Source of the DNA: Chiloscyllium plagiosum
Lineage: Eukaryota
Direction of reading: 5' to 3'
DNA: 51,971 bases
Assembly (NCBI RefSeq): GCF_004010195.1
Contig: NC_057760.1
Location: 2,270,343 to 2,322,313, forward strand
Position 1 is the stretch's first letter. Each line of letters opens with the position of its first letter. A model generated the notes under the pieces. The model made no database searches, was not told the origin of the DNA, and saw nothing but the letters and a program-made list of their open reading frames with translations. Positions 519 through 43,701 of the stretch are shown piece by piece. The translations under genes and the position numbers were made by a program.

Positions 519-624
519 TTATTTCCATATCTGCTTTAGTATACAAATGTGTCTTTGCAGAACAGTAGACCACATCCTTTTAGTTTTAGTTCATTTTTCA
601 TATGCTGATATCCTGATCTGAGAG

Positions 625-841
625 GTGAAAGTGAGTACTGCAGATGCTGGAGATTAGAGCGGTGCAGGAAAAGCACAGCAGGTCAGGCAGCATCCAAGGA
701 GCAGGAAAATCGACGTTTCAGGCAAACACCCTTCATCATGAATAAGGGCTGATGATGGGCTTATGCTTGAAATGTCGAATTTCCTGCTCCTTGGATGCTG
801 CCTGACCTGCTGTGCTTTTCCAGCACCGCTCTAATCTTGGG
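625..841. mobile_element. Palindromic mini Penelope-derived element (family A) with two inverted hammerhead-like cores
   Basis: Inverted arms at ~651-739 and ~750-837. 14-bp TSD TCCTGATCTGAGAG at 611-624 and 842-855. Confidence 0.8.
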
Positions 842-1187
842 TCCTGATCTGAGAGCCCTCTCGTGCTTCACCTGATTCTTTCAAATGTGAATTTTTACAG
901 GTTACTTGACCTAGAGTCATGTTGCTAGATTTGATGCTCCCCTGCCAATTGAAGACAGGTTTGAAGGCAGGAGGCATATATCAAACCTAATAGATAATCT
1001 CCTTCCTGTCACCTATCCCGATCTGTCTGAAATTATGCAGCAGGTGGGAGAGATGGTGGGTAGCCCTTGGGTCTACTGAGTCCCTTAAGTGGACACTTGT
1101 ACCCACGGCTAGAGAAACCCATTCCCTGAAGGAAGTACAACAGTTTGAGCTGTTTCGACTGGTGCCAGGCAATACTGGCGGAAGACT

Positions 1188-1650: not shown

Positions 1651-2369
1651 TGTGTTGGAAACACATTTACTTTCCACAAGTGCCCATTCAATTATTGATT
1701 TTCACAATCCCTGTAAAGTGGAAATGTCCAAGTCACTATCATTTCCTGCATAAAAAACATTCTTGCTCACAATCCTCCAGCAGCTTGTCTAAAACTTAAA
1801 CCCATGGTGCCCAGTGCTTGTATGAACAGCAAATGGAAATAGATGTTCCTGGTTACCTTATGAAACCTGTCATTGTCCTGTAGACCTCCATCAAGTCAAA
1901 TCTCTTCTCAATCTCTTTTGGTCTGAACAGAACAATCTCACTTTCTCTATTCCCACCTTGTTCTGTTTGGACTTGATAGGCCAAATAGCCTTCTTTTGTG
2001 CCATAATAGTTGTTTGGGCTGGACTTGCCAAGTTGCCTGTTGTCCCCCACCATCTAAAAGATCAAGGGAATCTATTCAAATTCCTGCCAACTGCCTTGCG
2101 GCACTTTTATAACCATATTGATAAATCTTCTCTGTACCCTCACAGCCTTTCCCAGAATGGGCTGACTGCACCTTTTCCAATTTCTTTTTGAAAGTATTGA
2201 TTACAATTCTGCTTACATCATCCCTGTGGGCAGCAATTTGCCTGAATCAAAATCTGGTGAGGAAACACCAGCCCTTCCCATATACATGCTTACGTTTGGA
2301 TATGACTGAGAGCTACATTAGCTGATCCTTTTGTTCTTCTGAACCTCTTGCACAAACAGAGCTGTTCTA

Positions 2370-2699
<330 letters not shown>

Positions 2700-2872
2700 T
2701 CAAGGATCAGATAAATTATTGCCAGTCTGGAAACTAATTGAACAACGCGTGTTCAATTAATGTCGGTTTCAAGGACCGTGAAAGGAAGAAAAAAAATAAA
2801 ATGTTGCAAGAAACCTGTCACAAGCAATCTAAAACACTCAACACAATCAACATGAAAAGCAATTTTGTACTC

Positions 2873-3227
2873 AGTTAAAAATCACACAACACCAGGTTAT
2901 AGTCCAACAGAGGTAAAAACAATGGCTGCAGATGCTGGAAACCAGATTCTGGATCAGTGGTGCTGGAAGAGCACAGCAATTCAGGCAGCATCCGACGAGC
3001 AGCAAAATCGACGTTTCAGGCAAAAGCCCTTCATCAGGACTGATCCAGAATATATTCCAACAGGTCTAATTGGAAGCACTAGCTTTCAGAGCGCTGCTCC
3101 TACAACAATCTGATGAAAGAGCAGTGCTCCAAAAGCTAGTGCTTCCAATTAAACCTGTTGGACTATAGCCTGGTGTTGTGTGATTTTTAACTTTGTACAT
3201 CCCAGTCCAACACCAGCATCTCCAAAT
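2873..3227. mobile_element. Palindromic mini-PLE (family C) with a nested family A insertion at 2911-3051
   Basis: Inverted arms AAAATCACACAACACCAGG...CCTGGTGTTGTGTGATTTT. Outer TSD CAATTTTGTA(C/T)TC at 2860-2872 and 3228-3240. Inner TSD TATA(G/T)TCCAACAG at 2898-2910 and 3051-3063. Confidence 0.8.
3008..3038 (-). ncRNA. Minimal hammerhead ribozyme core
   Basis: Minus strand CCTGATGA-A-GGGC-TTTT-GCCT-GAAA-C-GTC-GA. Confidence 0.65.
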
Positions 3228-3595
3228 CAATTTTGTATTCTGCTTTGAATAGCACTCCCATTCCTCAGATGGTTATCAGAACCCTCAGCCCAGGTGGAAA
3301 GTACAGGTTTGCCATTTCAAGTGTGAACCTGCTTGGTTGTAATACCTGACCTAAATAGTTATTAGCACTACTACTAATTAGTTGCCACATAGGTGAAGGA
3401 AAGGGAGGGTGGTACAGTCAGTCCAACAAGTAGACATTGCCTTCAAGAAGAAAGACAATAAAGGGCATACGTTAATTCTGCTGACATCAAGATACAAGGG
3501 AGAGAGCAGGAAAATGACATTAAGCTTGTGTTATATGATCAGCCATGATGTACAATGATGGAGGAGGCTCAAAGAGCTGAATCATCTACTAGGTG

Positions 3596-6500
3596 AGGTC
3601 AGCAGAGATGCCAGTGGCCAGTGCAAGGACACCAGCGACCGGCAGCTGGAGTGGGAACACTGGCAACCAGCAGCCTGGAGCAGGGACACCGGTGACCAGT
3701 GGCTGGAGTGGGGATGCCGGCGACCAGCAGCCTGGAGCAGGGACACCGGTGACCAGTGGCTGTGAGCAGGGACTTAAGAGACCAGTGGCTGGAGTGGGGA
3801 CACTGGTGAACAGTGTCTCAGAGTGCAGACACCAACAACCAGTGGCCTAATGCGGGGAAACCAGTGACCAGTGGCCCGGAACAGGGACGCTGGTGTCCAG
3901 CGGCCTGAAGCAGGGACGTCAGAGACCAGCGGCCCAGTGCGGGGACACCGGGAATCAGTGCCATGGAGCAGGGATATCAGTGACCAGCGGCACAGAGCAG
4001 GGACACCGGTTACCAGCAGCCTGGTGTGGGGGTAACCTGCAACCAGTGTCTTAGAGCAGGATATCGGTGACCAGCAGCCCAGAGCTGGGATACCGGTGAC
4101 CAGTGGCCCAGAGCAGGGACGCCAGTGACCAGCGGCACAGAGCAGGGACACCAGTGACCAGCGGCCCTGAGCAGGGACACCAGTGACCAGCGGCACAGAG
4201 CTGGGACACCGGTGACCAGCGGCACAGAGCTGGGACACTGGTGACCAGCGGCCCAGAGCTGGGACACCGGTGACCAGCAGCACAGAGCAGGGACACTGGC
4301 AGCCAGCGGCCCAGACCATGGACAATGGTGACCAGCGGCCCAGAGCTGGGACACTGGTGACCAGCGGACAGAGCAGGGACACCAGCAACCAGTGGCTGGA
4401 GTGGGGTCACCAGCGACCAGTGGCGGGAGTGGGGACACCAGTGACCAGTGCCTCGGAGTGGGGACACCAGTGACCAGTGCCTTGGAGTGGGGACACCAGT
4501 GACCAGCAGCTGGAGTGGGGACACCGGTAACCAGTGCTTTGGAGTGGGGACACCAGTGACCAGTGCCTTGGAGTGGGGACACCAGTGACCAGCGGCTGGA
4601 GTGGGGACACCGGTGACCAGTGCCTCGGAGTGGGGACACCGGTGACCAGTGTCTCGGAGTGGGGACACCGGTGACCAGTGTCTCGGAGTGGGGACACCGG
4701 TGACCAGTGTCTCGGAGTGGGGACATCGGTGACCAGTGTCTCGGAGTGGGGACACCGGTGACCAGTGTCTCGGAGTGGGGACACCGGTGCCTCGGAGTGG
4801 GGACACCAGTGCCTCGGAGTGGGGACACCGGTGACCAGTGTCTCGGAATGGGGACACCGGTAACCAGTATCTCGGAGTGGGGACACCGGTGACCAGTGTC
4901 TCGGAGTGGGGACACCGGTGACCAGTGCCTCGGAATGGGGACACCGGTGACCAGCGGCTGGAGTGGGGACACCGGTGACCAGCCGCTGGAGTGGGGACAC
5001 CGGTGACCAGTACCTCAGAGTGGGGACACCGGTGACCAGCGGCTGGAGTGGGGACACCGGTGACCACCGGCTGGAGTGGGGACACCGGTGACCAGCGGCT
5101 GGAGTGGGGACACCAGTGACCAGGAACTGGAGTGGGGACACCAGTGACCAGTGCCTCAGAGTAGGGACACCAGTGACCAGCGGCTGGAGTGGAGACACTA
5201 GGGACCAGTGCCTCGGAATGGGGACACCAGTGACCAGCGGCTGGAGTGGGGACACCAGTGACCAGGAACTGGAGTGGGGACACCAGTGACCAATGCCTCA
5301 GAGTGGGGACACCAGTGACCAGCGGCTGGAGTGGGGACACCAGTGACCATATCCTCAGAGTGGGGACACCTGTGACCAGTGGCTGGAGTGGGGACACCAG
5401 TGACCAGTGCCTCAGAGTGGGGACACCAGTGACCAGTGCCTCAGAGTGGGGACACCAGTGACCAGCGGCTGGAGTGGGGACACCAGTGACCAGCAGCCCA
5501 GAGCAGGGACAATGGTGACCAACGCCCAGAGCAGGGACAATGATGACCAGCGGCCCAGTGCAGAATGTGTTAGCGGCCAGTGGTCAGACCACATGGAAGC
5601 CCACTGCATCAGGCTACTATGGCTAGCCCTTGGAGAGAGACTGTGATGTTTGTCTTTGTAATTTTGTTTCTTGTTCTTCTTTCCTATGGTTATACTGTGT
5701 ATAGCTGTAATGTAACTGTCCTATGGTTATACTGTGTATAGCTGTAATGTAACTGTGCTCTTCCAGCACCACTGATCCAGAATATAGTCCAACAGGTCAG
5801 CAGAGATGCCAGTGGCCAGTGCAAGGACACCAGCAACCGGCAGCTGGAGTGGGAACACTGGCAACCAGCAGCCTGGAGCAGGGACACCGGTGACCAGTGG
5901 CTGGAGTGGGGATGCTGGCGACCAGCAGCCTGGAGCAGGGACACCGGTGACCAGTGGCTGGAGTGGGGATGCCGGCGACCAGCAGCCTGGAGCAGAGGCA
6001 CCAGTGACCGGTTGCCCTGAGCAGGGACTTAAGAGACCAGTGGCTGGAGTGGGGACACTGGTGAACAGTGTCTCAGAGTGCAGACACCAACAACCAGTGG
6101 CCTAATGCGGGGAAACCAGTGACCAGTGGCCCGGAACAGGGACGCTGGTGTCCAGCGGCCTGAAGCAGGGACGTCAGAGACCAGCGGCCCAGTGCGGGGA
6201 CACCGGGAATCAGTGCCATGGAGCAGGGAACGCAGTGACCAGTTGCACTGAGCAGGGACACATGTGACCAGTGGCCCAGAGCAGGGATATCAGTGACCAG
6301 CGGTCCAGAGCAGAGACACCGGTTACCAGCAGCCTGGTGTGGGGGTAACCAGCGACCAGTGTCTTAGAGCAGGATACCGGTGACCAGCAGCCCAGAGCTG
6401 GGATACCGGTGACCAGCGGCCCAGAGCTGGGACAATGGTGACCAGCGGCCCAGAGCAGGGACACTGGTGACCAGCAGCCCAGAGCTGGGACACCGGTGAC

Positions 6501-7976
6501 CAGCGGCAAAGAGCAGGGACACCGGTGACCAGCGGCCCAGAGCTGGGACACTGGTGACCAGCGGCACAGAGCAGGGACACTGGTGACCAGCGGCACAGAG
6601 CAGGGACACTGGTGACCAGCGGCCCAGAGCTGGGATACCGGTGACCAGCGGCACAGAGCAGGGACACTGGTGACCAGCGGCCCAGAGCAGGGACACTGGT
6701 GACCAGCGGCCCAGAGCTCGGACACCGGTGACCAGCGGCCCAGAGCTGGGACACTGGCAGCCAGCGGCCCAGAGCAGAGACACCAGCGACCAGTGGCTGG
6801 AGTGGTGACACCGGTGACCAGTGCCTCGGAATGGAGACACCGGTGACCAGTGCCTCGGAATGGAGACACCGGTGACCAGTGTCTCGGAGTGGGGACACCA
6901 GTGACCAGTGCCTTGGAGTGGGGACACCAGTGACCAGTGCCTCGGAGTGGGGACACCAGTGACCAGTGCCTCGGAGTGGGGACACCAGTGACCAGCGGCT
7001 AGAGTGGGGACACCAGTGACCAGTGCCTCGGAGTGGGGACACCGGTGCCCAGCAGCTGGAGTGGGGACACCACTGACCAGCGGCTGGAGTGGGGTCACCA
7101 GTGACCAGTGCCTCAGAGTGGGGACACCAGTGACCAGTGCCTCAGAGTGGTGACACCAGTGACCAGCGGCTGGAGTGGGGACATCAGTGACCAGTGCCTC
7201 GGAGTGGTGACACCAGTGACCAGTGCCTCGTAATGGGGACACCAGTGACCAGCGGCTGGAGTGGGGACACCAGTGACCAATGCCTCAGAGTGGGGACACC
7301 AGTGACCAGCGGCTGGAGTGGGGACACCAGTGACCAGTACCTCGGAGTGGGGACACCAGTGACCAGCGGCTGGAATGGGGACACTAGTGACCAGTGCCTT
7401 GGAGTGGTGACACCAGTGACCAGCGGCTGGAGTGGGGACACCAGTGACCAGCGGCTGGAGTGGGGACACCAGTGACCAGTGCCTCGGAATGGGGACACTA
7501 GTGACCAGTGCCTCGGAATGGGGACACCAGTGACCAGAGGCTGGAGTGGGGACACCAGTGACCAGCGGCTGGAGTGACACCAGTGACCAGTGCCTCAGAG
7601 TGGGGACACCAGTGACCAGCGGCTGGAGTGTGGACACAAGTGACCAGTGCCTCGGAATGGAGACATCAGTGACCAGCGGCTGGAGTGGGGACACTAGTGA
7701 CCAGTGCCTCGGAATGGAGACACCAGTGACCAGCGGCTGGAGTGGGGACACCAGTGCCCAGTGCCTCAGAGTGGGGACACCAGTGACCAGCGGCTGGAGT
7801 GGGGACACCAGTGACCAGTGCCTCAGAGTGGGGACACCAGTGACCAGCAGCCCAGAGCAGGGACACCAGTGACCAGTGCCTCAGAGTGGGGACACTAGTG
7901 ACCAGCGGCTGGAGTGGGGACACCAGTGACCAGTGCCTCAGAGTGGGGACACCAGTGACCAGCGGCTGGAGTGGGA
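3596..7976 (+). repeat. GC-rich 28-29-bp minisatellite in two higher-order copies (from 3596 and from 5794)
   Basis: Units GGGGACACCAGTGACCAGTGCCTCGGAGT, GGGGACACCAGTGACCAGCGGCTGGAGT and GGGACACCGGTGACCAGCGGCCCAGAGCT. Both copies begin AGGTCAGCAGAGATGCCAGTGGCC. Confidence 0.95.
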
Positions 7977-8017
7977 CTGTGATGTTTGTCTTTGTAATTT
8001 TATTTCTTGTTCTTCTA

Positions 8018-8273
8018 TCCTATGGTTATACTGTGTATAGCCGTAATGTAACTGTCCTATGGTTATACTGTGTATAGCTGTAATGTAACTGTCCTATGGT
8101 TATACTGTGTATAGCCATAATGTAACTGTCCTATGGTTATACTATGTTTAGCTGTGATGTAACTGTCCTATGGTTATACTGTGTTTAGCCGTGATGTAAC
8201 TGTCCTATGGTTATACTGTGTATAGCTGTAGTGTAACTGTCCTATGGTTATTCTGTGTATAGCTGTAATGTAA
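8018..8273 (+). repeat. 37-bp tandem repeat, ~7 units (2 more units at 5682-5756)
   Basis: TCCTATGGTTATACTGTGTATAGCTGTAATGTAACTG with starts at 8018, 8055, 8092, 8129, 8166, 8203 and 8240. Confidence 0.95.
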
Positions 8274-8566
8274 TTTCTCTATGCTGTAACGAAGGACTAT
8301 ACCTAGGTACCTTTGTATGTAAGAAGGCACTGTAACTGGTGACTTATAAACAGTGACAATAAAGCTAATTCAATTCAAGAGACACAGGTATGGTGCAGGA
8401 AAATGACATTAAGCTTGTGTAATGTGACCAGTAACGATCTACAAACATCTAATGGCTTACTCTTGTTTCTAGGTTCTTATCTGCTCTACACACCAAGAAG
8501 CTGAATTCCTGATTTCAAGAAAAAGGCTTTCCATAGCCAGAATAAAATAATAGGTTTATTTTGCTA

Positions 8567-8697
8567 TGATTTGGAGGTGCCGGTATTGGACTGGGATGTA
8601 GAAAGTTATAAATCACACAACACCAGGTTATAGTCCAATAGATTTATTTGGAAGCACTAGCTGGTGGACTATAAACTGATGTTGTGTGATTTTTAAC
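8567..8697. mobile_element. Centre-deleted family C palindromic mini element
   Basis: Same arms as 2873-3227. 12-bp TSD TTTATTTTGCTA at 8555-8566 and 8698-8709. Confidence 0.7.
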
Positions 8698-8773
8698 TTT
8701 ATTTTGCTAAGCAGTGCAAGAACCTACCAAAACCCAATTCAGTTATGTTTGCAATCTGTTACACCAATGGTTT

Positions 8774-9978
8774 TTAGGCGAAAGTGAGGACTGCAGATTA
8801 GAATCAAGATTAGAGTGGTGCTGGAAATGCACAGCAGGTCAGGCAGCATCCGAGGAGCATGAAAATCGACGTTTTGGGCAGGAGCCCTTCATCAAAGTCT
8901 TAGAGAGAATTGTAAGGGATAGGATTTATGAACATCTGGATAGGAATAATGTGATCAAGGATAGTCAGCATGGTTTTGTGACTAAGGAGGTAGACGAGGG
9001 TAAAGCGGTAGATGTGGTGTATATGGATTTTAGTAAGGCGTTTGATAAGGTTCCCCATGGTAGGCTACTGCAAAAAATACGGAGGTCTGCCATTGAGGGT
9101 GAGTTGGGCGTTTGGATTAGGAATTGGCTGGCTGGAAGAAGACAGAGGGTAGGAGTTGATGGTAAAGGTTCATCTTGGAGTGCAGTTACTAGCGGTGTTC
9201 CACAAGGATCTGTTTTGGGACCATTGCTGTTTGTCATTTTTATAAATGACCTGGAGGAGGGGCTAGAAGGTTGGGTGAGCAAGTTTGCGGAAGATACGAA
9301 AGTCGGAGGAGCTGTTCACAGTGAGGAAGGATGTGGCAGGTTACAGCAGGATATAGAGAAGCTGCAGAGCTGGGCAGAAAGGTGGCAAATGGAATTCAAT
9401 GTAGCTAAGTGTGAGGTGATTCACTTTGGGAAGAATAACAAAAAGATGGGGTACTGGGCTAATGGTCGGATACTTGGTAGTGTGGATGAGCAGAGGGATC
9501 TTGGTGTCCATGTACACAGATCTCTGAAAGTTGCCACCCAGGTAAATAGTGCGGTGAGGAAGGCATATGGCGTACTGGCTTTTATTGGTAGAGGAATTGA
9601 GTTCCGGAGTCCTGAGGTCATGATGCAGTTGTATAAAACTCTGGTCCGCCCGCATCTGGAATATTGTGTCCAGTTTTGGTCGCCATACTATAGGAAGTTC
9701 ATGGAATGCCCTGCCAGTAGCAGTCGTGGACTCTCCCTCTTTATGGGCATTTAAACGGGCATTAGATAGGCATAAGGAGGATAGTGGGCTAGTGTAGGTT
9801 AGGTGGGCTTGGATCGGCGCAACATCGAGGGCCAAAGGGCCTGTACTGCGCTGTATTTTTCTATGTTCTCTATTCTATCAGGAATGCATGATGAATGGCT
9901 CCTGCCTGAAACGTCAATTTTCCTGCTCTTCGGATGATGCCTGACCTGCTGTGCATTTCCAGCACCACTCTAATGATG
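8774..9978. mobile_element. Family A palindromic mini-PLE split at its centre by a CR1 LINE
   Basis: Left arm 8776-8893, right arm 9877-9973. 10-bp TSD CCAATGGTTT at 8764-8773 and 9979-9988. Confidence 0.78.
8895..9876 (+). mobile_element. CR1-clade LINE ORF2 RT fragment with 3' tail, internally deleted
   Basis: QHGF, VYMDFSKAFDKVPH, GVPQGSVLGPLLF, KFAEDTK, RPHLEYCVQFWSP. TTCTA(TG)-like tail. Confidence 0.92.
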
Positions 9979-17709: not shown

Positions 17710-17916
17710 GGCTAGGCGAAAGTGAGTACTGCAGATGCTGGAGATTAGAGTTGAGAATGCGGGGCTGGAGAAGCACAGCAAGTCAGCCAGCATTCGAGGA
17801 GCAGGAAAACTGACGTTTTGGGCAAAAGCCCTTCATTAGGAAACTGCAGGAAATTCCTGATGAAGGGCTTTTGCCTGAAACGCTTGATCTGTGTGCTTTT
17901 CCAGCATCACACTCTC
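17710..17916. mobile_element. Family A palindromic mini-PLE
   Basis: Direct repeat GACTGGGATTCAAAGC at 17694-17709 and 17917-17932. Plus-strand core CTGATGAAGGGCTTTTGCCTGAAAC at 17857-17881 and a degenerate minus core at 17812-17840. Confidence 0.8.
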
Positions 17917-27822: not shown

Positions 27823-30800
27823 CATGAGCACATGATGAAGAGCTCATGCTCCAAACATCGACTCTCCTGCTCTTCAGATGGTGCCTGACCGTCTGTGCTT
27901 TTCCAGCACCACATCTTTTGAAACTGAGCATTACTAAGTTTGTTTCATTAAAAAAAACATATAAGGTTAGGAGAAAGGCTTTTCTAATTTCCCTACCTTG
28001 CCTTGATTGAATATGGCATAGGATATGGTCTTGAGTGATGCAAATCAGAACATCCCTCCCTAATGGCATTGTGGTCTCTCTTCAGCAGATTGTCTGCAGC
28101 TATTCAAGAAAGTACCTCACTACCACCTAATCAGGTGCAACTGGGCACAGATGATAAATACTGGCCCAGCCAGCAATTGCCCACATCCCATGACTTTTTT
28201 TTTAAACATCCATGATTCAATCCCCTACCTGTATCAACTAGGATTGTAAGTGGTGCACTATAAAGTGAACTTAGTCACTAGCTAGAATACAGAAGCTAGA
28301 AAGGGTTCGCATTCTAATGTTTAGGCAACAGTGAAGAGAGGAGGAAAAACAACAATAAAACAAAGGAGTGATATTTACCAGTCCAAATCATCTTGTATAC
28401 CTCAAAATGGAGCTCAGTACAACTGGCATGTTCATTTCCAAGTATTAATGCTTTTTTCCCTCTGGAAGGGGTATAGATAAAGACAGAAAGGAAGTGAGAG
28501 AAAAAGGATAGAAGGAGAAAAGACTTTTTGTATCTTTTATCACCTCAGGATCTCACCCAGAGCCAATTAAATGCTGTCATAATCTACACTGATGGTAGTA
28601 CTGGACAAGTCAGATTCCAAAGTAAAACCTGGCTCAATGGACAATAAGTTTAATTTTACTTTTTAGTGTGGAGATCAGTTATTGAGCATGATCACTAGAT
28701 ACAATCAATGTACATTAAATAAAATGTAAGAGTTTCTCATTCAAAAGGGAAAGCACCAACAACATTACAGGGACTATTGAAACTATTTCATTACAAACAT
28801 CAGAAAGGAACATTCATCCCTTTTTATCACAATGATATCCTTAGTGATACTCAAACCTCAGTGAAGAGTCACCCTTTCCTTGATGCTAGAACTTCTAGTA
28901 CATCTGGCATGGCTGTAATCATAAAGATTGGATGAAAAAAGGAAAACAAAGAAATATAAAATAAACAGAATGGGAAAACATTCTCATGCCATTTAGGAGC
29001 TTCAGCAGCTCATTTGTTGGCTGGTTAGGATTATATAGAATATACAATATAGCAATTGGCCATTCGGCACAATCAAACCATGCTGGTGTTTATGCTCATC
29101 CTAAGGGTCCTCTTGTTGTTTCATCTAAATTTACCTATTTAGAACATAGAACATAGAAGAATACAGCGCAGTACAGGCCCTTCGGCCCTCAATGTTGCGC
29201 CGATCCAAGCCTACCTAACCCACACTAGCCCACTATCCTCCATATGCCTATCCAATGCCCGCTTAAATGCCCATAATGAGGGAGAGTCCTTCTCCCTTGT
29301 GTATTTATCTAATTTTCTCTTAGATGTATCAATCCCATTTCCTTCCACCATTCCCTGTACTATAGTTCCTCATTCTTACCATGCTTTGGATAAAGAAACA
29401 CCTTCCTAATTCTTCATTGGATGAATTAGTAACTATCTTGAAAGCATTGGTAATGCTCTTACCCACAAGGGGAGATATTCCCTCATCTGTAACAACTCTA
29501 TCAAAACCACTCACTGAGCTAGACAGATCACTGATTGAAGAGGGAGTCCAGAATTATGGACAGCAGGTGGAAAAATGGGGTTAAGGTCATAATCAGATCA
29601 GCCATGATCTTATTGAATGGCAGAACTCCGAGGTCCACACACAGCAGCAGCTTTTAGGAAGTAGCGGCTACACATCAGCATGCCATTTGGTGAGCATACG
29701 TCCCAGTGATGGTCCTTAGAAGGAACAAAAAACTGAAGAACTGCAGATACTGGAAATCAGAAAACAGATATTGCTGGAAAAAAAACTCAGCAGGAGAGAA
29801 CCAAGAGTCATTGTTTCGGGTCCAGTGACCCTTCTTCAGAATGGATCTGTGTTCTCTCCACAGATGCTGCCAGACTTGAGTTGTTTTCAGCAATCTCTGT
29901 TTTTGTCTTAAAGGGAATGATGGATGGATGCGGGGAATCAAATGAACAGTGATCTTTGCTTTGCCTAACAGACTTTGAGATGACAAAACAAACCCAATTT
30001 AAAACAGTGGAGAAGGCTTGAGGGCTGAATGGCCTAATCCTGTTCATGTTCCTTATGCTCAATAAGTAAAGTTAACTTTCATTGCAACAGGATTTGATTT
30101 CAGAAGTAGGGATGTATTATAGCAACTTGATGAGACCACATCCAGAGTTCAGTATGTTGTTTTTATCTCCTTACCTAAGTAAAGTTATACCTGCCATAGA
30201 GGAGGTGCAGCAGGGATCCAGTTGGCTGATACTGGGGATGACAGTATTCTCACTGTCCTGTGAAGAGAGATTGGTTTGACTGTACTCAGTAGAGTTTATA
30301 AGGATGAGGAAGGATCTGATTGAAATGTTTAATGATAGCATTCCTACATCTGAATCAGGAGACCCTGATATAATTCCTACCTACTCCAGAAGTATGTAAT
30401 AATATATCTGAACAGGTTGTTTAAAAATATCTAGTATTCTAACAGGACTAGGCAGACTAGATACAGGGAAGATGTTTTCCTGATTAGGGAGTCTAGAATC
30501 AAGGGTCACAGTCTCAGGATATGGCAAGACCATTTAGGACTGAGATTTCTTCACTCAAATAATAATAGACCTGTGGAATTCTCTATCACAGAAGGCTGTG
30601 GAAGCCAAGTCATTTAATATATTTAAGAAAAAAATTATCATTTTTAAGATTGGGGTATGGGGAGAAAGCTGGGAAATGGCATTGAGATAAATGATCGGCC
30701 ATGATTCTATTGAATGGTTGAGCAGACTTGAAGGGCCAAATGGGGGTATAATGGCCTAGTGGTATTATTGCTGAACTATTAATCCACTGATGTTCTGGGA

Positions 30801-30939
30801 CCAAGATTCGAATCCCTCCAGAGCAGATGGTACAATTTGGTTCCAATAAAAATCTGGAATCAAAACTCTAATGATGACCATGAAATCCTGACAATGGTTG
30901 AAAAACCCACCTGGTTCACTAATGCCCTTTTAGAAAGGA

Positions 30940-31091
30940 AGGTGAAAGTGAGGACTGGAGATTAGAGTCGAGAGAGCGGTGCTGGAAAAGCACAGCAGGT
31001 CAGGCAGCATCCGAGCAACAGGAAAATCGATGTTTCGGGCAAAAGCCCTTCATCAGGAATGGAAAATCAGCATTTCAGGCAAAAGCCCTTT
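30940..31091 (-). mobile_element. Family A PLE end with one hammerhead core and a tandem partial second core
   Basis: Minus CTGATGAAGGGCTTTTGCCCGAAACATCGA at 31027-31056. Repeated TTTC(G/A)GGCAAAAGCCCTT at ~31073-31091. Confidence 0.72.
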
Positions 31092-31839
31092 GTCCTTACT
31101 CAGTCTGGGCAATGGGGTCTGACTCTTTCTTAACAATTAAGGATGGGCAACAAACACTGACCGAGCTGGCGATGCCCACATCCCACCAACCAACAATGGA
31201 GGAAGAGCTTAATAAGGAAACTCCTGCTCTCATAGCATCATAGACCTATACAGCAAGGAAACAGACCCTAGGGTCCAACGTGTTCATGCCAACTAGATAT
31301 CTTAAGTTAGTCTAGTCCCATTTACCAGCATTTGGCCCATATTCCTCTAAACCCTTCCTACTCATGTACCCATCCAGATGTCTTTTAAATGCTGTAATTA
31401 TACCAGCCTCCACCACGTCCTCTGGCAGCTTGTTCCACACATGTACCACCCTTTGCATGGAAAAGGTTGACCTTAGGTCTCTTTTAAATCTTTTCCCTCT
31501 CACCTTTAACCTTTGCCCTCTAGTTTTGGACTCCACTACCCCGTGGAAAAAAGATTTTGCCTATTCACTCTATCCATGCCCCTTGTGATTTTTGTAAACT
31601 CCTATACAGTTCCTATGTTTCGAAACACAAAAAACGGGGAGACAGAGAGAAAATAAAAGCAGAATAATCATACAGAACAAAGAACCGCAGGTGCTAAAGA
31701 TGTGAAACATAAACTGCTGGGGAAAAAATCTGTGGAGGGAAAGCAGAGTCAGCGTTTTCAATGCGGTGAGAGGATAATAATAAAATTTAAGTAAAGGTTA
31801 GATAAATAAGGTTGAAGAGGTTAATGGGGAGCAGCTGCC

Positions 31840-32230
31840 ATCGACCAAAGTGGGAGGCAATGGCACAAGATGGCGACGGTCACCCCACGCGCGCGGCTTT
31901 CCCGCCCTGACGGGGAACGTTCGCCCGCTGTTCCAGGGCCGCCTTGCGGGGCGGAAGTGGCCTCCGATTCCGCCAACCCCTGCGGGGCGCAAACAAAACG
32001 CGGGAGGGGGAACATCCGGTGGAGGGGCCTACTTTCGGTGGCTGAGGGCGTGTGCGGGGGAGTCACGTGGGGCGATGGAGCGCGAGGCTCATGGCGGTTC
32101 GAGCCTGACCAGGCTTTCTCCGCCTCTTCATCTTCCCCTGTCCCGGCTGGGTAAGGCCGGTATCTGATGCTTACCGTACCACTTTGCTACGACCTTCTTC
32201 TGGAAGGGAAGCGGGGCAGAGCGCAGTCCT
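31840..32230. promoter_or_regulatory. CpG-island promoter of TDRD10 (possibly bidirectional with SHE)
   Basis: Main CpG-dense non-repeat stretch in the window. YY1-type AAGATGGCG at 31867, GC box at 31948, ETS/GABP GCGGAAGTG at 31951, E-box GTCACGTG at 32062. Confidence 0.8.
32075..32150 (+). CDS. TDRD10: TDRD10 putative exon 1 (coding or 5'UTR)
   Basis: ATG at 32075 (gcgATGG) reads MEREAHGGSSLTRLSPPLHLPLSRL to donor G|GTAAGG. Phase 1 is compatible with the next exon. Confidence 0.5.
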
Positions 32231-33552
32231 CCAGTGGGGACTGGAGTCACCTATAATTGAGCAGAGGGTTAGAGTAAAGAAGGTGTGCCCCAGTGGGGAC
32301 TGGAGTCACCTATAATTGAGCAGAGGGTTAGAGTAAAGAAGGTGTGCCCCAATGGGGACTGAGTAAAGGGTTAGAGTAAAGAAGGCATGCCCCAGTGGGG
32401 ACTGGAGTCACCTATAATTGAGCAAAGGGTTAGAGTAAAGAAGGCATGCCCCAATGGGGACTGGAGTCACCTGTAAGGATTGAGCAAAGGGTTAGAGTGA
32501 AGAAGGCATGCCCCAATGAGGACTGAGTAAAGGGTTAGAGTGAAGAAGGCATGCCCCAATGGGGACTGGAGTCACCTATATTTGAGCAAAGGATTAGAGT
32601 AAAGAAGGCATGCCCCAATGAGGACTGAGTAAAGGGTTAGAGTGAAGAAGGCATGCCCCAATGGGGACTGAGTAAAGGGTTAGAGTAAAGAAGGCATGCC
32701 CCAATGGAGACTGGAGTCACCTATATTTGAGCAAAGGATTAGAGTAAAGAAGGCATGCCCCAATGAGGACTGAGTAAAGGGTTAGAGTGAAGAAGGCATG
32801 CCCCAATGGGGACTGGAGTCACCTATATTTGAGCAAAGGATTAGAGTAAAGAAGGCATGCCCCAATGAGGACTGAGTAAAGGGTTAGAGTGAAGAAGGCA
32901 TGCCCCAATGGGGACTGAGTAAAGGGTTAGAGTAAAGAAGGCATGCCCCAATGGAGACTGGAGTCACCTATATTTGAGCAAAGGATTAGAGTAAAGAAGG
33001 CATGCCCCAATGAGGACTGGAGTCACCTGTAAGGATTGAGCAGAGGGTTTAAGTGAAGAAGGCATGCCCCAGTGGGGACTGGAGTCACCTATGAGGGTTG
33101 GGTAGAGAGGGAGATCAGAAGGATTCAGAAGAAGGATAGGGTAGAGACCAAGGGTGAAGAGGGGATGCCCCAGTGGGACTGGAGTCACATATAGGGATTG
33201 GCTAGAGGGTTTAGGAGTTCAGAAGGATTCAGGAAAAGGATTGGGTAGAGGGTTATGGTAATAAAGGCATACCCTAATGGGACTGGAGTCACATGTAAGA
33301 ACAGGCAGCAGGGTTAGGGGGATGGAGTGGGTGTGTCTACATGGATTTGGAGTGAGCAAAAACATTAGGAGGGTGTTGGGGAGAAATGTGTAGATATGGT
33401 GCCCCAGTGGGGCTGAAATCACATGTAAAGTTCAGGCAGATGTTTTGGTGTGAGGTTGGTGGTGTTGACCTTATAGGACTGGAGTCATTTATAAGGAATG
33501 GGTAAAAGATTAGGGATATGGAAGGATGCCCCAATGGAACTGGAGTCACTTA
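32231..33552 (+). repeat. Minisatellite of interleaved ~59-bp and ~43-bp units, decaying 3'
   Basis: CAGTGGGGACTGGAGTCACCTATAATTGAGCAGAGGGTTAGAGTAAAGAAGGTGTGCCC and a deleted variant lacking GGAGTCACCTATAATT. Confidence 0.92.
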
Positions 33553-33929
33553 TGAAGAAGGTTTCTACATGGAATAAAAGAGCACCCTGCAGTGAGTTAT
33601 ACACTGGAATCTAATTGAGGGGTTCAGGGGCTTTATATACAAAATAGATGCTCAGGAGTGAGTTAAGGTAGGGAGTGGATGGGGGGCTGTGGAAGAGAGG
33701 TTATGGGCACCACAAATCTCTGCCTCACGTGGTGTTGAGGGTCCATTGCCAACTGAACTGCTACAATAAGCTGCATGATTGCATCCTGCTCTACCTAGAT
33801 CTTGCTTCCCAACCCTTCTGACTGTGAAACTTAGTGGCTGTTAGGAAAGGCCCTCCATCAGATCCAGGCTTTTAACCTCCTCTCGGGATATCAGTTTAAC
33901 TGTGCTTTAATCACTTTGATGCAATTCTA

Positions 33930-34715
33930 CCAGGTTCTGGAGATCTGTGGAATTCCATTATTTTCCTCTGTCAGATTCCAGTCTATAACTCCTTCCTGAG
34001 TAACTTATTCGATATATAATTCACCTGAGCCCTCTGATTATGTCAGCTGGGAAATCACTCCTATATATCTGTTATTTTCTATCTAAACTATCCCCACACC
34101 CCTTGATTATATTCTAATCTGTAACTCTCCCCTAGTATGTTATTCTATATATAAATCCTCTGAACCTCTTTATTAGATTTGTTTTCAATATATAAATGCC
34201 CATTTCCCCCCAATCCCTACGCTGGATACCAGCCTGTAACTCACTTCTGAGCATCAGTTCTATATATAAAGCCTCTGAACCTCAATTAGACTCCAGTCTG
34301 TAACTCACCGCAGGGTGTTTTTTATTCTATGTAGCAAAGCTTTGAAGCTCTTGACTATATTCCAGTTCATCTCCCTGAACCCTTGATCAGATTCCAGTCT
34401 GTAAAACATTGCTGAGTATCTGTTATTGAATATAAAAGCCACCGGAATGCCTCATTTGATTCTAGTCTGTAATTCACTCCCAGGTATCTTATCTAAACAT
34501 ACCTCTTCTTCTCCCCGCCCCCCCCCCCCCCCTCCCCCCATCGATTCCAGAACCTCTAGATTAAATTCTAGTCTGTAACTCACTCCTGGATCTCTGCTAT
34601 TCTATCTATAAAGCCCCCGAACCCCTTGATTAGATTCCACTCTGTAACTTACTCCCATTTATCTGTTATTTTGTAGATAAGCCCTCAAACGTCATGATTA
34701 GATTCCAGTCTGTAT
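33930..34715 (-). repeat. Degenerate ~70-bp satellite (inverted copy at ~33585-33665)
   Basis: Recurring GATTAGATTCCAGTCTGTAACTCACTCC...TATCTGTTATTCTATATATAAA...GAACCC. Confidence 0.8.
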
Positions 34716-34940
34716 CTCTTGTCTGGGGTTACATCCTTAGTTTAATGTACTTATCACTTGTTCTTTTCCAATAGATCATGTATATTAGTTCAACAGCACT
34801 TTCAGGGAGTTCTGGGGTATTTTAAGCTAAATCTATTGAAAGTTGCATTGTTTAATTCTGCAGTTGTTTAGTTGGTGGAACTTCAATTGCTGGAACCTTT
34901 GCTCAGAATTGAAACTAACTGGCTGCTTGAATTCCTTCAG

Positions 34941-34971
34941 GTCTTAGGAAGCCTCTGCAGAAAATGAAAAT
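34941..34971 (+). CDS. TDRD10: TDRD10 putative 31-nt micro-exon ending in AT
   Basis: ttccttcag|GTCTTAGG...AAAAT|gtaagt. Phase 1 to 2 keeps the frame open (GLRKPLQKMK). Confidence 0.55.
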
Positions 34972-35311
34972 GTAAGTTTATGCAACATTATTTTATTTCC
35001 TTAAGGACGTATAATCTTGGGTAGGGAGATTTAATGATGTTTACAAACAGAAGTATTAGTTGCCAGCCTCATGAACTTCCTTCACCATTCAGCAAGATTG
35101 TGGCTGATCTGATTAGAACTGAACTGGTAGATCTGTGGGTTTTGGGTTGCTGATGGACTCTAGAGTGCTGGCCGCATGTGTTTCCACGGTGATATGCCTC
35201 ACTGCCCATCTTTCATGTGGGAGCAATGCAGTCGATGTGGATGGATTATTTGCCTGCAGGGGGTGTCACAGTTGAGTGATCTTGGCTTGACATCCAGTTG
35301 TAACGGTGGAA

Positions 35312-35624
35312 TTTGATTAGATAACCTGCAGTATGGAAACAGGCCATTTCGCCCAACAAGTCCACACCGTCCACACCCACTCAGACCGTTCCCCTACCCT
35401 ATATTTACCCCAGACTATTGCACCTAACACTATGGGCAATTTAGCATGACCAGTTCACCTGACTAGCACATCTTTGGATTGTGGGAGGATACCAGAGCAC
35501 CCGGAGGAAACCCACACAGACACAGGGACAATGTGCAAACTCCACACAGACCAAGGTGGGAATCAAACCTGGATCCCTGGCACTGTGAGGCAGCAGTGCT
35601 AACCACTGATTCACTGTGCCGCCC
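35312..35624 (-). mobile_element. HE1-type V-SINE
   Basis: Same V-domain and tRNA head in reverse orientation. Confidence 0.85.
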
Positions 35625-36365
35625 TATTGAACCCATGTAACCAGTGCATTTTCCCAGGCCTATGGATTACTAATCTAGTGACAATACTGCTCTGGAACCA
35701 TCTTGCCTCTGTTCATTGAATTTAATTTATTGTCACATGTACCGAGGCACAGTGAAAAGCTTTGTCTTGCGAGCAATACATGCGGATCGCATAGTTAAGT
35801 AGCATAGATAAGTAAATACTAGGTAAACAGCAGAAACAACAAAAACACAGGTATAGGCTTCATCTGACTGTACTCCCCAGTGTTCAGGCTGTCGTAGAAT
35901 TGTACAGCATGGAAACCCTTCGGTCCAACTTGTCCGTGCTGACCAGATGTCTAAAATTAATCTAGTCCCATTTACTTGCATTTGGCATATCTCTCTAAAC
36001 CCTTCCTATTCATGTATCCATCCAGATGACTTTTAAATGCTGTAATTGTACCAGCCTCCACCACTTCCTCTGGCAGCTCATTCCATACACACACCACCCT
36101 CTGTGTGAAAAAGTTGTGCCGAAGATCTCTTTTAAATATTTCCCCTCTCACTTTCCCTCTAATTTTGGACTGCCCTACCCTGGGAAAAAGAGCTTGGCTA
36201 TTCTGGGCTCTTAAACAGTTAATTGATCTGCCATTAGCACAAAATGCTAAAGGAATGCAGGTTACAGGCAGTTGAATTACTAAGAATACTGCTGTCTTAT
36301 CAGGCATTAGTGTGCTTCTGGAATTGAAACAAGATTGGATTTGTCTGTTCCTATATTGATCCCAG

Positions 36366-36460
36366 GGCGACAAGTGAAAGCAGTGAAAAGCAGGTAGCAA
36401 GGAGGGTGATTCACCGTGAAGGAGCTTCTAACAGAAGACAGGAACCAAAGAATTCGAAAG
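36366..36460 (+). CDS. TDRD10: TDRD10 exon (MATSESSEKQ...EPKNSK)
   Basis: Pyrimidine-rich tract and cccag acceptor. Open 95 nt, donor AAG|GTACGT. Phase 2 to 1 joins in frame to the RNP2 exon. Confidence 0.7.
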
Positions 36461-38377
36461 GTACGTGGAATATCATTTTTTATTCTTCAGATATTCTCTT
36501 CCCGAGTCTTCAATGAACAAAGAGATTTGTCATTTTGGGGCAAGAATAAATGAGCAGTCAGAAATACTGTATGACGTCCGGTAGAGTTTTGAAAAGAAAA
36601 CTGTATTAAAATTGTTCTTGGAGTTATGCAAGGCCAGCATTAACTACTTTTCATTTTTGTCCACTTGAGAAGGTATGAACTGCTGCAGTCAACTGGTAGC
36701 AGAGTTGCTAGCAAGCTATTACAGAGGGCAGTTAAGAATCGACCACATCTTTGAGAGCCTGGAAATGGTGTGTAGGCTGGGCTGGGAAAGGATGGCAGAT
36801 TACCCTCCTAAAGAAGCAGCTTGGTTTTTCTGGCGATCCAATAGTTTCATGATTATTTGTATATTTAAATTTCCACCAATGTCATTGCTTGGATCAGAAC
36901 GCGCGCCTCTGGATTATCAGTTCAGACTTTTGATTGACAAGGCCAGTAGCATTGCCACCGTCAAGTGCTATTAAGCCCTTCAGGCCTGTGATTTCCAAAG
37001 CTCTCCATTGTTGGGGTATTTTTCACCTCGGGTCCTGTCCGACAAACAACAACAGACAGGAAAGGATGCTTGAAGTCACCCAGCCTGTCCATGCATGTAT
37101 TCATCTGCAGGAGGTGTTACAATTCCATTTAATGTAGATATATGAACATCCATACTGTCCTGACGAAACTTGAGAGAGGTGAACCCATTCAGAGCTCAGT
37201 AGTGAGCTAGTTTTGGACATCTCGTGTCAGACGCGCAGAGAATGTGGCTCATTGACCATAATCAGTGCCTCAGTGCTGGGAATATTGGCTGGAGAGATGA
37301 CAATGATGTTGGAATGCCAAGCCTGTCAGTACATTTGCAGGATTTTGCATCTGGGATTAGCAGAATGGGAGAGAGGGAATTAAGGGTGGAACATGGTTTT
37401 TCTTTCAACTAACAGTCACCTTGTTCCATTGCGGGGGGGGGAAGAAAATCCAATTAGGAAACCTGAATTGTAGAGTATGATCTTTGGCATTCACCCAAGT
37501 TGGACTGGGAAGTTCCTAGTTTCATCCCTATTTTATGGTGAGTTTAGTAAATAGGTAAGGAAAGTGCCTTGGGTCGACCTGTTTCAGCTCTGCTTCCCTT
37601 GGCTATGGAGCACGGGAGAATGTTGCCTGAGTTCCTGCTGTAGTCGCTGATTCCCGTGTGCAGAGATCATATGGAGTTGGGGGTGGGGTGGGGCTTGCTT
37701 GCTAGTGATGCATCCCCTTGTCTGAATTTCCTATTGATTCAGCTAATGTACTAGTGGAACTCAAATCCCAGAGGAACCACATCCTAGCTGGATTGAACAG
37801 ATGTGGTAGTGGGGGTGGAGGGGGTTGGGCACCTTTCACGGTCTCCCCTTTAAACATATATGGAAATGGCTTTGTATTATCGCTAGACTATTATTTTAGG
37901 TAAGGTTTGAACCCCACTGCACCTGATGGAATTCTTAATTCAATAAAAATCTGGAATTAAGGGTCTAATTGTGTTCATGAACTCTTGCCAATTAGAGTCA
38001 TGGAGTCAGACAGCATGGAAACACACATGTTAGTCCAATTAGTCCATGCCAACCAAGTTTCCCAAACTAAAGTTGTCCCATTTGTCTGTGTTTGGTCCAT
38101 TTCCCTCTAAACCTTTCCAATTCATATACCTGTCCAATAGTTAAACGTTGTAACTGTACCTGCGCCCACCACTTTTTCTGAATTGTAGGCAAATAATGTT
38201 TTTTAGGGAAGGAAGTGTTTTGTCCTCACTTGGTTTAGCCTCCACATGACTCTAGGCCCACAGCAATGTGATTGTCCATCACTAGTTGAGATTCCGTAAA
38301 TGCTGGCCCAGTCAGCGGCACTGTCATCTTGTAAATGAATAAAACAATTAACCCTTTTTATACTTGTTTTTCCATAG

Positions 38378-38430
38378 GACCCAGAAAGAAGGGCATCTAC
38401 ATTGGGAACCTTCCATCCGAGATTGCGGAG
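38378..38430 (+). CDS. TDRD10: TDRD10 RRM exon with RNP2 (IYIGNLP)
   Basis: tttttccatag|GA... encodes GPRKKGIYIGNLPSEIAE. Donor GAG|GTGCGT. Confidence 0.88.
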
Positions 38431-38799
38431 GTGCGTCGGGACACAATGATTCCATCCTTATTAAGACCTATGGTTTTGAATGATCAGCTTTGCTGTGTGC
38501 AGGAGCCTGATCTAGATTCTTTCAACCACACATGATTGTTGATCACGGGAGAGAGAGTTTGTGTTTCAGTTATTATCCCCATTGTATATTGTCCTCGCAT
38601 AATGGTTACTGTAAACCTACTGTTCACAGAGTATTTGGGAAACTAAACCTAGAGAGCATAATTTAATCCCATTAAATCGGATTTTTGTTCTCTCAAAGTC
38701 ATGAATCTATGGAATGCAATTTCTGGAGATTGCTAAATGCAGAGTCATTGAATACTTTTAAGGCTGAGTTAGATTCTTGATTTGGAGAAGGCAGTCAAG

Positions 38800-39606
38800 G
38801 TAGAAGACAGAAGGTGGTGGTGGAGGGTTTTTAGACTGGAGGCCTGTGACCAGTGGAGCGCCACAAGGATCAGTGCTGGGTCCACTACTTTTCATCATTT
38901 ATGCAAATGATTTGAATGTGAGCATAAGAGGCATAGTTGGTAAGTTTGCAGATGATACCAAAGTTGGAGGTGTAGTGGACAGCGAAGAAGGTTACCTCAG
39001 ATTACAACAGGATCTTGATCAGATGCGCCATCGGGCTGAGGAGTGGCAGATGGAGTTTAATTTAGATAAATGTGAGGTGCTGCATTTTGGGAAAGCAAAT
39101 GTTAGCAGAACTTATACATATAATGGTAAGGTCCTAGGGAGTGTTGATGAACAAAGACCTTGAACAAAGACCTTGAACAAAGACCTTGAACAAAGACCTT
39201 GAACAAAGACCTTGAACAAAGACAGACCTCAGGTTCATAGCTCCCTGAAAGTAGAGTTGCAGGTAGATAGGATAGTGAAGAAGGTGTTTGGTATCCTTTC
39301 CTTTATCGGTCAGAGTATTGAGTACAGGAGTTGGGAGGTCATGTTGCGGCTGTACAGGACATTGGTTAGGCCACTGTTGGAATATTGCGTGCAATTCTGG
39401 TCTCCTTCCTATTGGAAAGATGTTGTGAAACATGAAAGGGTTCAGACAATTGCAACATTTAAAAGGCATCTGGATGGGGACATGAATAGGAAAAGTTTGG
39501 AGGGAATTGGGCCAGGTGGGGCTAAATTGGGTTGGGATATCTGGTTGGTGTGGACAAGTTGGACTGAGAGGTCTGTTTCTGTGCTGTACATCTTTGACTC
39601 TATGAC
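38800..39606 (+). mobile_element. CR1 LINE RT/3' fragment
   Basis: PQGSVLGPLLF, KFADDTK, RPLLEYCVQFWSP. TGACTCTATGA tail. Confidence 0.9.
39148..39223 (+). repeat. 13-bp tandem repeat TGAACAAAGACCT, ~6 copies, inside CR1
   Basis: Unit starts at 39148, 39161, 39174, 39187, 39200 and 39213. Confidence 0.93.
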
Positions 39607-40158
39607 ACTTAAGAGTATGCGACAATAGATAGAAAAGTAGAATCCATGGTCAGATTAGCAATGATCAAATGGCAGAGCAGGCTGAGAGAGAAGGGAGAGG
39701 AGGGAGATTGGACAGAGAGAAAATGAGTTATCTTTGCTGCTGAGGGCGATTGTACTTTACTCCAGCCATCATTCATTATTACATTGTTCCTGGCTGCATA
39801 AACTCCAGAATGTGTTAGTACGCCAGCTGCAGTGGGCAATGAATTTGAGTCCTGGTGCCGGGGAAGGAGAGAGAGACTTAAGGAGCAAATGATGGACACA
39901 CCTGAGTAGCTCAGCCACTAACTCTGGATGGAGAAACAGTTAACACAAATGCTTGCCTTCTCCAGAGACACGTGCTGCTTGAGTTGCTGAATATTTTCAG
40001 CCTATGCTGATTTCACTTTCAATTTCTTGCATCTGCAGTGTTTTTTGATTTAGTTCACTGGCATTTCTCAACTAAAAAAAGTCATCTGCACATTCTGCTT
40101 TTCTCTCCAGTTTTGACAAAGATTTCTCTCTCTGCCCCCTACCTATCTCTCTGCCCTG

Positions 40159-40160
<2 letters not shown>

Positions 40161-40200
<40 letters not shown>
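40161..40200. repeat. (CT)n microsatellite (also (CA)n at ~10505-10527, poly-G at ~41466-41487)
   Basis: Read directly from the sequence. Confidence 0.95.
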
Positions 40201-40202
<2 letters not shown>

Positions 40203-40631
40203 TCCCCCCACCCACTTCACTCCTTTTACTCCGCCCTCGCTCGTTCTCTCCCTTTGCTCACCCTCCCTGCTCTCTTTCTCTCTAGCTCTGCCCTGTCTCT
40301 CTGCCGTTTCAAAAAAGAATCTGTTGCCCTTATCCATCTGGCCTACAGCCAGTGGGGCTGTCAACATCTGAAATTGCCAAATGAGCCATTCAATTCGAGT
40401 GCAGTTAGCAATGGGCAACCAGTTTTATTTTTGCTGGTGAACTCATTCCCATGAACAGTAACAGACTCTACTTGTATTTTATCTTGTGTTTGGTTCCTAG
40501 AATAGAAATGAAGGAAATGGGTGAGGTATGGGGAAATTGGGGTTTTGGCCTCGTTTGTTCTGCTCTCATTAGACATTCTTTGGAAAGGGCTCGGAGATGT
40601 GATGTCTGACCACTGTTTCCATTTCTTCCAG

Positions 40632-41465: not shown

Positions 41466-41560
41466 GGGGGGGGGGGGGGGGGGGGGAGAGAGAGAGAGAG
41501 TGAGTGGAGTGGTGTTCACTGTGATGTGGAGAAAAAGCAGGACGCCTGGTGACATGGAGT

Positions 41561-43255: not shown

Positions 43256-43544
43256 GGGATCCTGCTAGATTGTGGAATCAAATTCCAGGTTTCATCTGAA
43301 CAAAAATTAGCATGAAAGTGGCGAAAAAGCACCAATGGGTTCACTGAACACAAACCCTTACCTGGTCTGTCCAAAATTTTAGACATGGGTAACTTAGCAA
43401 GTTACTGTTGTGTTGGGTATTGTCAGCAACCTCTTCAGGAAACCTTGGGATGGGCAGTAAATGTGAGAGTTGTGGTTGATTGATTTTTTTGGAGGTGATA
43501 GTTGTTCTTGCAACATTCCCGATGTTCCCATCCTTTGTTGGCAG

Positions 43545-43701
43545 CTACGCTTTTGTTGACGTAGGGGATGCTGAAAATGTGGCGCTGGCTATCAGTCACT
43601 TGAACAACACCATCTACAATGGGCGACGCCTGGTCGTGAGAGAGCTGTGCGAGTCCCGGGGCAGTGAAAGATTGACAGAAACAACAGAGGTTGAATTGCC
43701 G
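43545..43701 (+). CDS. TDRD10: TDRD10 RRM exon with RNP1 (CYAFVD)
   Basis: ggcag|C encodes YAFVDVGDAENVALAISHLNNTIYNGRRLVVREL...ELP. Donor CCG|GTAGGA. Resembles recalled human CFAFVDLGSMQKVTLAIQELNG. Confidence 0.9.

Follow-up and report, generated by a model that had tools for sequence, protein, structure and literature searches.

The insert and its host gene

The window, as used here, is the whole stretch of 51,971 nucleotides from Chiloscyllium plagiosum that was analysed. It carries exons of a SHE-like gene, which were placed by mapping the protein to the window:

25861-24752, minus strand: SHE-like exon
21194-21066, minus strand: SHE-like exon
2639-2394, minus strand: SHE-like exon
470-300, minus strand: SHE-like exon

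Over 78 residues, the translation of 2394-2627 matches the SHE-like adapter protein of C. plagiosum with 100% identity. This SH2 adapter gene has an unusually long first coding exon (370 codons), and the shark protein has 647 residues compared with about 500 in most tetrapod matches. The element at 611-855 sits some 150 nt away from the splice acceptor at 464, in the intron between the exons at 2394-2630 and 300-470. SHE-like exons likewise enclose the loci at 2873, 8567, 8776, 17710 and 20452. A contig of a related species (organism B) spans 480-649 with two differences, so the insertion is common to that relative. Intronic minisatellites occupy ~3560-8300 and 32200-33100, with units of ~29 nt over 4 kb, units of 37 nt and mixed units of 43 and 59 nt. 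A weak match to RRM_5 at 43480-43842 on the plus strand (E 0.0018, below the cut-off) is perhaps an exon of a neighbouring RNA-binding gene.

The features of the insert, whose arms derive from a Penelope-like element (PLE), are the following:

611-624, plus strand: left target-site duplication (TSD), matching 842-855 at 14 of 14 positions
625-650, minus strand: one-sided PLE 'tail', the distal 3′ end, from its lack of pairing in folds and from sister alignment
651-748, minus strand: left arm, a 5′-truncated PLE terminus in minus-strand sense, 78-88% identical to sister arms in the window
712-739, minus strand: minimal hammerhead motif, damaged, with C3 changed to A (at 739) and G10.1-U11.1, from motif inspection
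739-749, no strand: head-to-head junction with an 11-nt loop, unlike every other centre in the window
749-841, plus strand: right arm, a 5′-truncated PLE terminus in plus-strand sense, tail absent, from complementarity and alignment
749-776, plus strand: minimal hammerhead motif, intact in its core letters, with the 5′ strand of helix I missing, G10.1-U11.1 and a changed loop-3 palindrome, from motif inspection
842-855, plus strand: right TSD, the second copy of the 14/14 repeat

An earlier, sequence-only reading had described some 217 bp of inverted Penelope termini, bounded by a 14-bp TSD and free of coding sequence, and this description was borne out in outline. The insert measures 217 bp (625-841), contains no ORF and is flanked by an exact 14-bp direct repeat; the Penelope origin of its termini is documented below. 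A direct repeat of this grade occurred in 17 of 16,602 random window pairs when minisatellites were excluded, and in 1,111 of 20,000 when they were included. Around the 11-nt loop, 80 of 88 positions pair between the arm at 651-738 and the arm at 750-837. The predicted fold of either strand of the insert is a rod, at −159.7 kcal/mol (z −18) and −153.5 kcal/mol (z −20), with a stability that was matched by none of 200 shuffles on either strand. The element is palindromic in its arms but asymmetric as a whole, because the 26 nt at 625-650 have no partner in the folds and leave a tail on one side only. In the alignment of sister copies the tail is ~35-38 nt long, if a 12-nt gap in the left arm of the 611-855 insert is allowed for. 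Family contigs from the DNA runs begin their alignment to the locus at 623-628; the last 2-3 nt of the left TSD may double as the element end, which would give a TSD of 11-14 bp.

The two arms differ by 9%, and the copy is old. Their mismatches are unevenly placed: 7 of the 8 fall within the inner 30 nt of the arms (709-738 and 750-779), leaving the outer parts nearly identical (1 of 58; Fisher p 0.002). The split element at 8774 has no such inner excess (p 0.23), and mismatch rates between loci are similar for the inner and outer parts (0.19 and 0.17). Loss of perfect hairpin tips or homogenisation of the outer arms are possible causes. The uneven pattern suggests post-insertion events in the hairpin, and could be taken to mean that the insertion began as a solo terminus, to which a mirror arm was added afterwards through template switching in replication or through repair. 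We regard such a sequence of events as exceedingly improbable. Three separate stubs have right arms that end, abutting the TSD, at one and the same 3′ site without a tail, which counts against later duplication because a duplication of this kind would not respect the site; the right arm also retains nucleotides that have been lost from the left.

Source of the arms and related copies

The window contains about a dozen occurrences of the arm, which are 78-88% identical. Two of the related copies are long:

41560-43250, minus strand: decayed long copy with a broken reverse transcriptase (RT), CX2-5CxxC linker, GIY-YIG-type endonuclease, 3′ UTR, hammerhead and tail, from homologue search
51500-51971, minus strand: second long copy with the endonuclease C-terminus and an intact minimal hammerhead with helix I, running off the window, from homologue search and motif

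The broken frame at 41560-43250 (minus) matched shark protein P0001 at 57% (tblastn, E 7e-89), and the copy covers residues 336-801 of the 803 in the full-length homologue P0004. P0001 carries RVT_1 and several homologues are annotated with both PF00078 and PF01541. Many of the homologues, among the 120 listed, carry PF01541 (GIY-YIG). A Pfam search of the broken PLE frames gave no matches (0/4 and 0/4), and their identity was drawn from the homologue search instead. The CX2-5CxxC linker is found upstream of the endonuclease in 78 of the 80 homologues that show an endonuclease motif, and also in the 41560-43250 copy. This linker ahead of GIY-YIG marks Neptune/Nematis rather than Penelope/Poseidon elements in the accessible text of PMC8557442; judged by the linker motif alone, the family is probably of Neptune/Nematis type.

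Since the terminus follows the RT and endonuclease ORF, each arm, read in the hammerhead sense, is the 3′ end of the element. The insert is made up of two 5′-truncated PLE 3′ ends placed head to head, with a TSD beyond each 3′ end. The distal end, with the tail, belongs to the left arm; the right arm stops at a proximal site that it shares with the right arms of the stubs at 8776 and 17710. An exact 22-nt pattern from the arm had no matches in viral contigs. It had five in metagenome contigs, where similarity ended at 22-25 nt; these were treated as chance.

The sequence-only reading also saw the same design at three further places in the window, which we resolve as follows:

17710-17916, no strand: head-to-head sister stub with a 16-bp TSD, an internally deleted right arm and its own centre and spacer, from alignment
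8776-9978, no strand: head-to-head sister stub (the 8774/8776 element), TSD 11/12, its centre split by an unrelated RT retroelement, from alignment and Pfam
2873-3227, no strand: palindrome of a different terminus family, TSD 12/13, containing a nested stub, from alignment
2911-3050, no strand: the nested stub, with one long arm and one 12-nt arm, from alignment

Head-to-head stubs are thus present at the first two places, but they are not the same unit: one has a deleted arm and another centre, and the other holds about 1 kb of RT sequence in its centre. The third is a palindrome with a TSD, but it belongs to another terminus family and has a second insertion nested inside it.

The RT-bearing retroelement (8896-9880; PF00078, E 4e-26) sits at the very centre of the 8776-9978 palindrome and is presumably of LINE type. 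Hairpin tips might attract insertions, or might survive better once split. The nested stub at 2911-3050 has its own duplication (2898-2910/3051-3063, 12/13). At 5753-5800, within the minisatellite region and ~2.7 kb off, 31 nt are 100% complementary to the nested stub arm (2946-2976) and are followed by the 13-nt target sequence of the stub; the piece appears to be the right end of the nested insertion, either displaced or duplicated. A short palindrome of the 2873-3227 family, with a duplication of 13/14 and a different junction downstream of the hammerhead, lies at 8555-8711 (hammerhead family 8567-8697). The copies at 1190-1340 and 29733-29900 represent a further terminus family that has a hammerhead motif with a longer helix II (cores 1322 and 29839, minus strand), and the 29733-29900 copy has an apparent mirror arm. 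In the stub at 30942-31090 the hammerhead region is partly repeated in direct (tandem) orientation, in place of an inverted arm.

Hammerhead motifs and 5′ ends

The hammerhead of the family is of minimal type I; the copy at 51597 has it intact, helix I included, and the copy at 20580 almost intact. For the insert, a hammerhead core had been read on each strand. A motif does occur on both strands, but the minus-strand core has A at C3, and the plus-strand motif lacks the helix I 5′ strand because the plus arm begins at C3 (749). An intact CUGAUGA...GAAA core is present on the plus strand only. Neither motif has the G10.1-C11.1 pair; both have G-U.

The expectation that a transcript of either strand would fold as a rod containing one hammerhead held, by prediction, for the rod and for the motif, but not for a foldable ribozyme. 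The predicted probability of helix II is 0.0000, both in the full transcript and in transcripts that end just past the motif, whereas it exceeds 0.94 in two solo copies. Opening the core is predicted to cost 21.6-28.6 kcal/mol in the rod, compared with 3.5-3.9 kcal/mol in two solo copies. Because either strand transcribes the complement before the motif, the motif is predicted to be trapped even in partial transcripts. The host intron is transcribed from the minus strand, on which the motif is the C3 mutant. This intron is the sole predicted transcript, and within it the motif would be buried in a hairpin of 88 bp formed by the insert. By sequence and predicted folding, neither motif of the insert combines the intact core, helix I, G10.1-C11.1 pair and accessible fold of an active hammerhead, and both are predicted to be inactive and buried in the rod. 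An Rfam profile search of the window (E<=1) returned five matches, none to a hammerhead and none at 611-855. The matches to miRNA families on other palindromes of the window were below the gathering score and were judged to be generic hairpin matches.

The left arm of the 611-855 insert stops 6-9 nt upstream of the hammerhead core, and 6 of the 9 loci counted have their 5′ end in the interval −9..+1 relative to C3. This count excludes 47941 (70% identity), the 5753 fragment and the hammerhead families of 1190-1340, 29733-29900, 2873-3227 and 8567-8697. The binomial p for the clustering is 1e-4 to 9e-9, for assumed uniform ranges of 100-500 nt and with the interval −9..+1 chosen once the data were known. 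The clustering goes beyond what simple random truncation explains, and in this respect counts against the origin by abortive insertion proposed below. Hammerhead cleavage was rejected as the source of the 5′ ends, which lie at −9..+1 of C3 with the cut site at +27. Run-off at the RNA 5′ end, a stall at a structure or a splice boundary could explain the clustering; in Drosophila an intron ends at helix I (PMC4209133, in part), and an internal promoter has been described in Drosophila Penelope (PMC2377424).

The ends at the hammerhead 5′ edge also bear on whether the stubs are copies of short non-autonomous RNAs (~150 nt, beginning at that edge, from solo termini) that use PLE protein in trans, with the palindrome rebuilt at each insertion in a SINE-like lineage. 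In addition to the 6 of 9 loci, this proposal is consistent with a loose-end consensus that breaks ~5 nt upstream of the core, with the internal promoter of Drosophila Penelope, with the sufficiency of pLTR sequences in cis for mobilisation in trans (PMC3846280) and with the finding that 5′-shortened RNAs still serve as templates in vitro (PMC11167929), as far as the accessible parts of these sources go. However, clustering of this kind should also arise where RT, having initiated in the 5′ pLTR of ordinary full-length transcripts, continues to the RNA 5′ end and runs off, or stalls at the hammerhead structure. A stub-specific diagnostic lineage was not demonstrated, and the 611-855 copy is old, being present in organism B as well as having arms 9% apart. 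We therefore consider short-RNA copies an unlikely source of the stubs. The narrower suggestion that the stubs record a fixed stop, with cDNA ends piling up at the hammerhead 5′ edge (~30 nt upstream of the cut site) as the starting point of a short terminus-only RNA, seems to us rather unlikely. If it were true, tens of thousands of shark stubs would constitute a SINE-like non-autonomous PLE lineage whose palindrome is rebuilt at each insertion, and a genome-wide map of breakpoints would bear directly on whether PLE integration uses fold-back or two-nick priming.

Formation of the insert and comparison with known systems

Two origins had been put forward from the sequence: a class of mini-retroelement amplified as a unit, and repeated independent inversion-truncation during PLE insertion. 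The former would require that a palindromic mini-element with its ribozymes be transcribed and reinserted whole, either MITE-like or as a viroid-like rod; the clean TSD, compact size, recurring shape and rod fold of the insert are all compatible with it. However, the centres of all palindromes in the window differ, and every locus has its own centre and its own arm lengths. Shared changes in the arms point the same way. The arms of the 8774 element share three departures from the window majority, and those of the 611-855 element share two (both CpG-type), plus C at position 660, where ~95% of family depth reads T and where C is also found in 30940. The left arms of the two elements share no departures, so that arms group by element rather than by side, although this comparison rests on two elements and later homogenisation of the arms could also yield it.

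A genome-wide view was obtained by matching contigs of three DNA runs (X1, X5 and X13) at 80% likeness to a reference of 480-765, which comprises flank, one arm and centre. The matching contigs numbered 76,431 (X1), 60,023 (X5) and 58,872 (X13). Summed contig depth, which is not equal to copy number, was 6-18 in the flank, ~2-3 × 10^7 in the arm, 30,549-40,503 at 740-749, 34-325 at 750-759 and 0-34 at 760-765; private changes at 727-739 shorten the alignments of paralogs. Expressed in units of the single-copy flank, depth fell from ~1,750-4,760 at 740-749 to 8, 19 and 2 at 750-759 and to 3.1, 1.9 and 0 at 760-765 (X1, X5 and X13 respectively). Daughters of 611-855 would align through 765 and can therefore amount to at most a handful; the reference stops at 765, and masters with other centres fall outside this count. 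Among the 24 pieces listed, one contig (X5 record 24, 675-765, 17 differences) spans the centre without a gap, which is the one further point in favour of copying as a whole.

Loose ends behind 718 and 724 (469-707 contigs per row) gave a consensus that is common up to ~5 nt upstream of the core in the best 18 of 568 rows. Farther upstream the consensus varies by row and by run in the same 18 rows, with an agreement of 0.47-0.56; this level of agreement and the divergence of the rows indicate that no single centre or continuation dominates, although upstream subfamily differences would also blur such a consensus. Strand-change joints were few across the DNA runs (15 of 33 listed). In an RNA run (X22), none of the 8,328,510 records in a sample of ~6% of the run matched, which counts neither for nor against expression.

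Amplification of the insert as a unit is not supported by these data. The check proposed by the sequence-only reading, that every copy should have a unique junction if the stubs are by-products, largely turned out that way: the window centres all differ, with the reservation that contigs, few in number, cross the 611-855 centre at 0-3 flank units of depth. Further points against a mini-element reinserted whole are that neither hammerhead is intact, that the motif on either strand follows its own full complement and is predicted to be trapped, and that the ends fit PLE RT start sites, not the ribozyme cut site. For the 611-855 copy this explanation is largely refuted, and we judge it highly improbable. 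Independent inversion-truncation during PLE insertion is supported by the differing centres, by the loose-end consensus that varies between runs and by the small depth across the centre.

We suggest instead, with good confidence, that the insert consists of two 5′-truncated 3′ ends of an abundant shark PLE, arranged head to head between TSDs, that it is likely to stem from one abortive insertion and that, by prediction, it is inert today. The hammerheads ride along with the terminus as passengers. The endonuclease of the element would cut the target with a stagger of 11-14 nt. RT would then prime at one nick and start at the distal internal start, giving rise to the tail, and would stop just past the hammerhead. 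The second arm would be copied from the same template, either by fold-back of the cDNA or by priming at the second nick from the proximal start, and joining of the two 5′ ends would complete the head-to-head insert. For PLE in vitro, both DNA strands are cut and extended, the tail corresponds to the distance between two internal RT starts and ribozyme cleavage is not required (PMC11167929, accessible text). How the head-to-head repeats of PLEs form is stated as an open question in PMC8557442 and PMC3846280, as far as their accessible text goes.

As a single locus the insert matters little, being a decayed by-product of a known class of retroelement. Collectively, the stubs are useful, because they are very numerous in the shark genome and each keeps the two RT start sites and the two stop sites of a single insertion. 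Intronic hairpins of the stub type would also be predicted sources of dsRNA; inverted Penelope copies yielded siRNAs in Drosophila (PMC3681739, in part).

The closest known system is the insertion unit of EN+ PLEs. According to the available parts of PMC8557442, PLE copies are often 5′-truncated, have an inverted truncated copy next to them and carry a tail of 30-40 bp at one end; those of PMC3846280 describe an inverted pLTR together with a tail and a TSD, in most cases with head-to-head orientation, and ascribe the structure to self-priming. The insert shares with these units the 5′-truncated terminus, the head-to-head inverted truncated copy, the one-sided tail of 30-40 bp and the TSD. Together with the hammerhead motif and the family ORF of RT and C-terminal GIY-YIG-type endonuclease, it thus presents the features of such a unit. 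It differs in that both halves are reduced to the bare terminus and enclose no ORF, and in belonging to a very abundant shark family. With Neptune/Nematis-type PLEs (PMC8557442, in part) the family has in common an RT followed by a C-terminal endonuclease and the CX2-5CxxC linker, a likeness in which the clade is given by the motif only.

The minimal hammerheads of metazoan PLE pLTRs (PMC4209133) are likewise of type I: an additional nucleotide precedes helix II, a stable helix III is lacking and loop 3 is palindromic. Pairs of minimal hammerheads on opposite strands, 100-700 bp apart, are ascribed there to truncated PLEs. In contrast to those hammerheads, both motifs of the 611-855 copy are damaged; sharks are not named in the accessible part of that source. 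The non-LTR retrozymes of animals (bioRxiv 10.64898/2026.07.22.740005, in part) are also non-coding, derived from PLE termini and equipped with a type I hammerhead, but they are head-to-tail tandems with intact hammerheads, whereas the insert is head to head with damaged ones. A retrozyme is recognised by at least two units in head-to-tail order, every one of them containing a whole hammerhead; the insert has no such arrangement.

MITEs are short, palindromic, TSD-flanked and non-coding. Unlike them, the insert and its sisters have asymmetric ends, TSDs of variable length (12-16 bp), arms derived from a retroelement and no uniform copies. Many unlinked copies with the same ends and the same centre would characterise a MITE-like family; here the centres in the window differ and depth at 760-765 is equivalent to 0-3 flank units. 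We found no description of a palindromic non-autonomous PLE from a shark or other vertebrate in the literature, mostly open texts, and absence from print is not established by this. The insert itself is an ordinary new instance of an already described form of PLE insertion.
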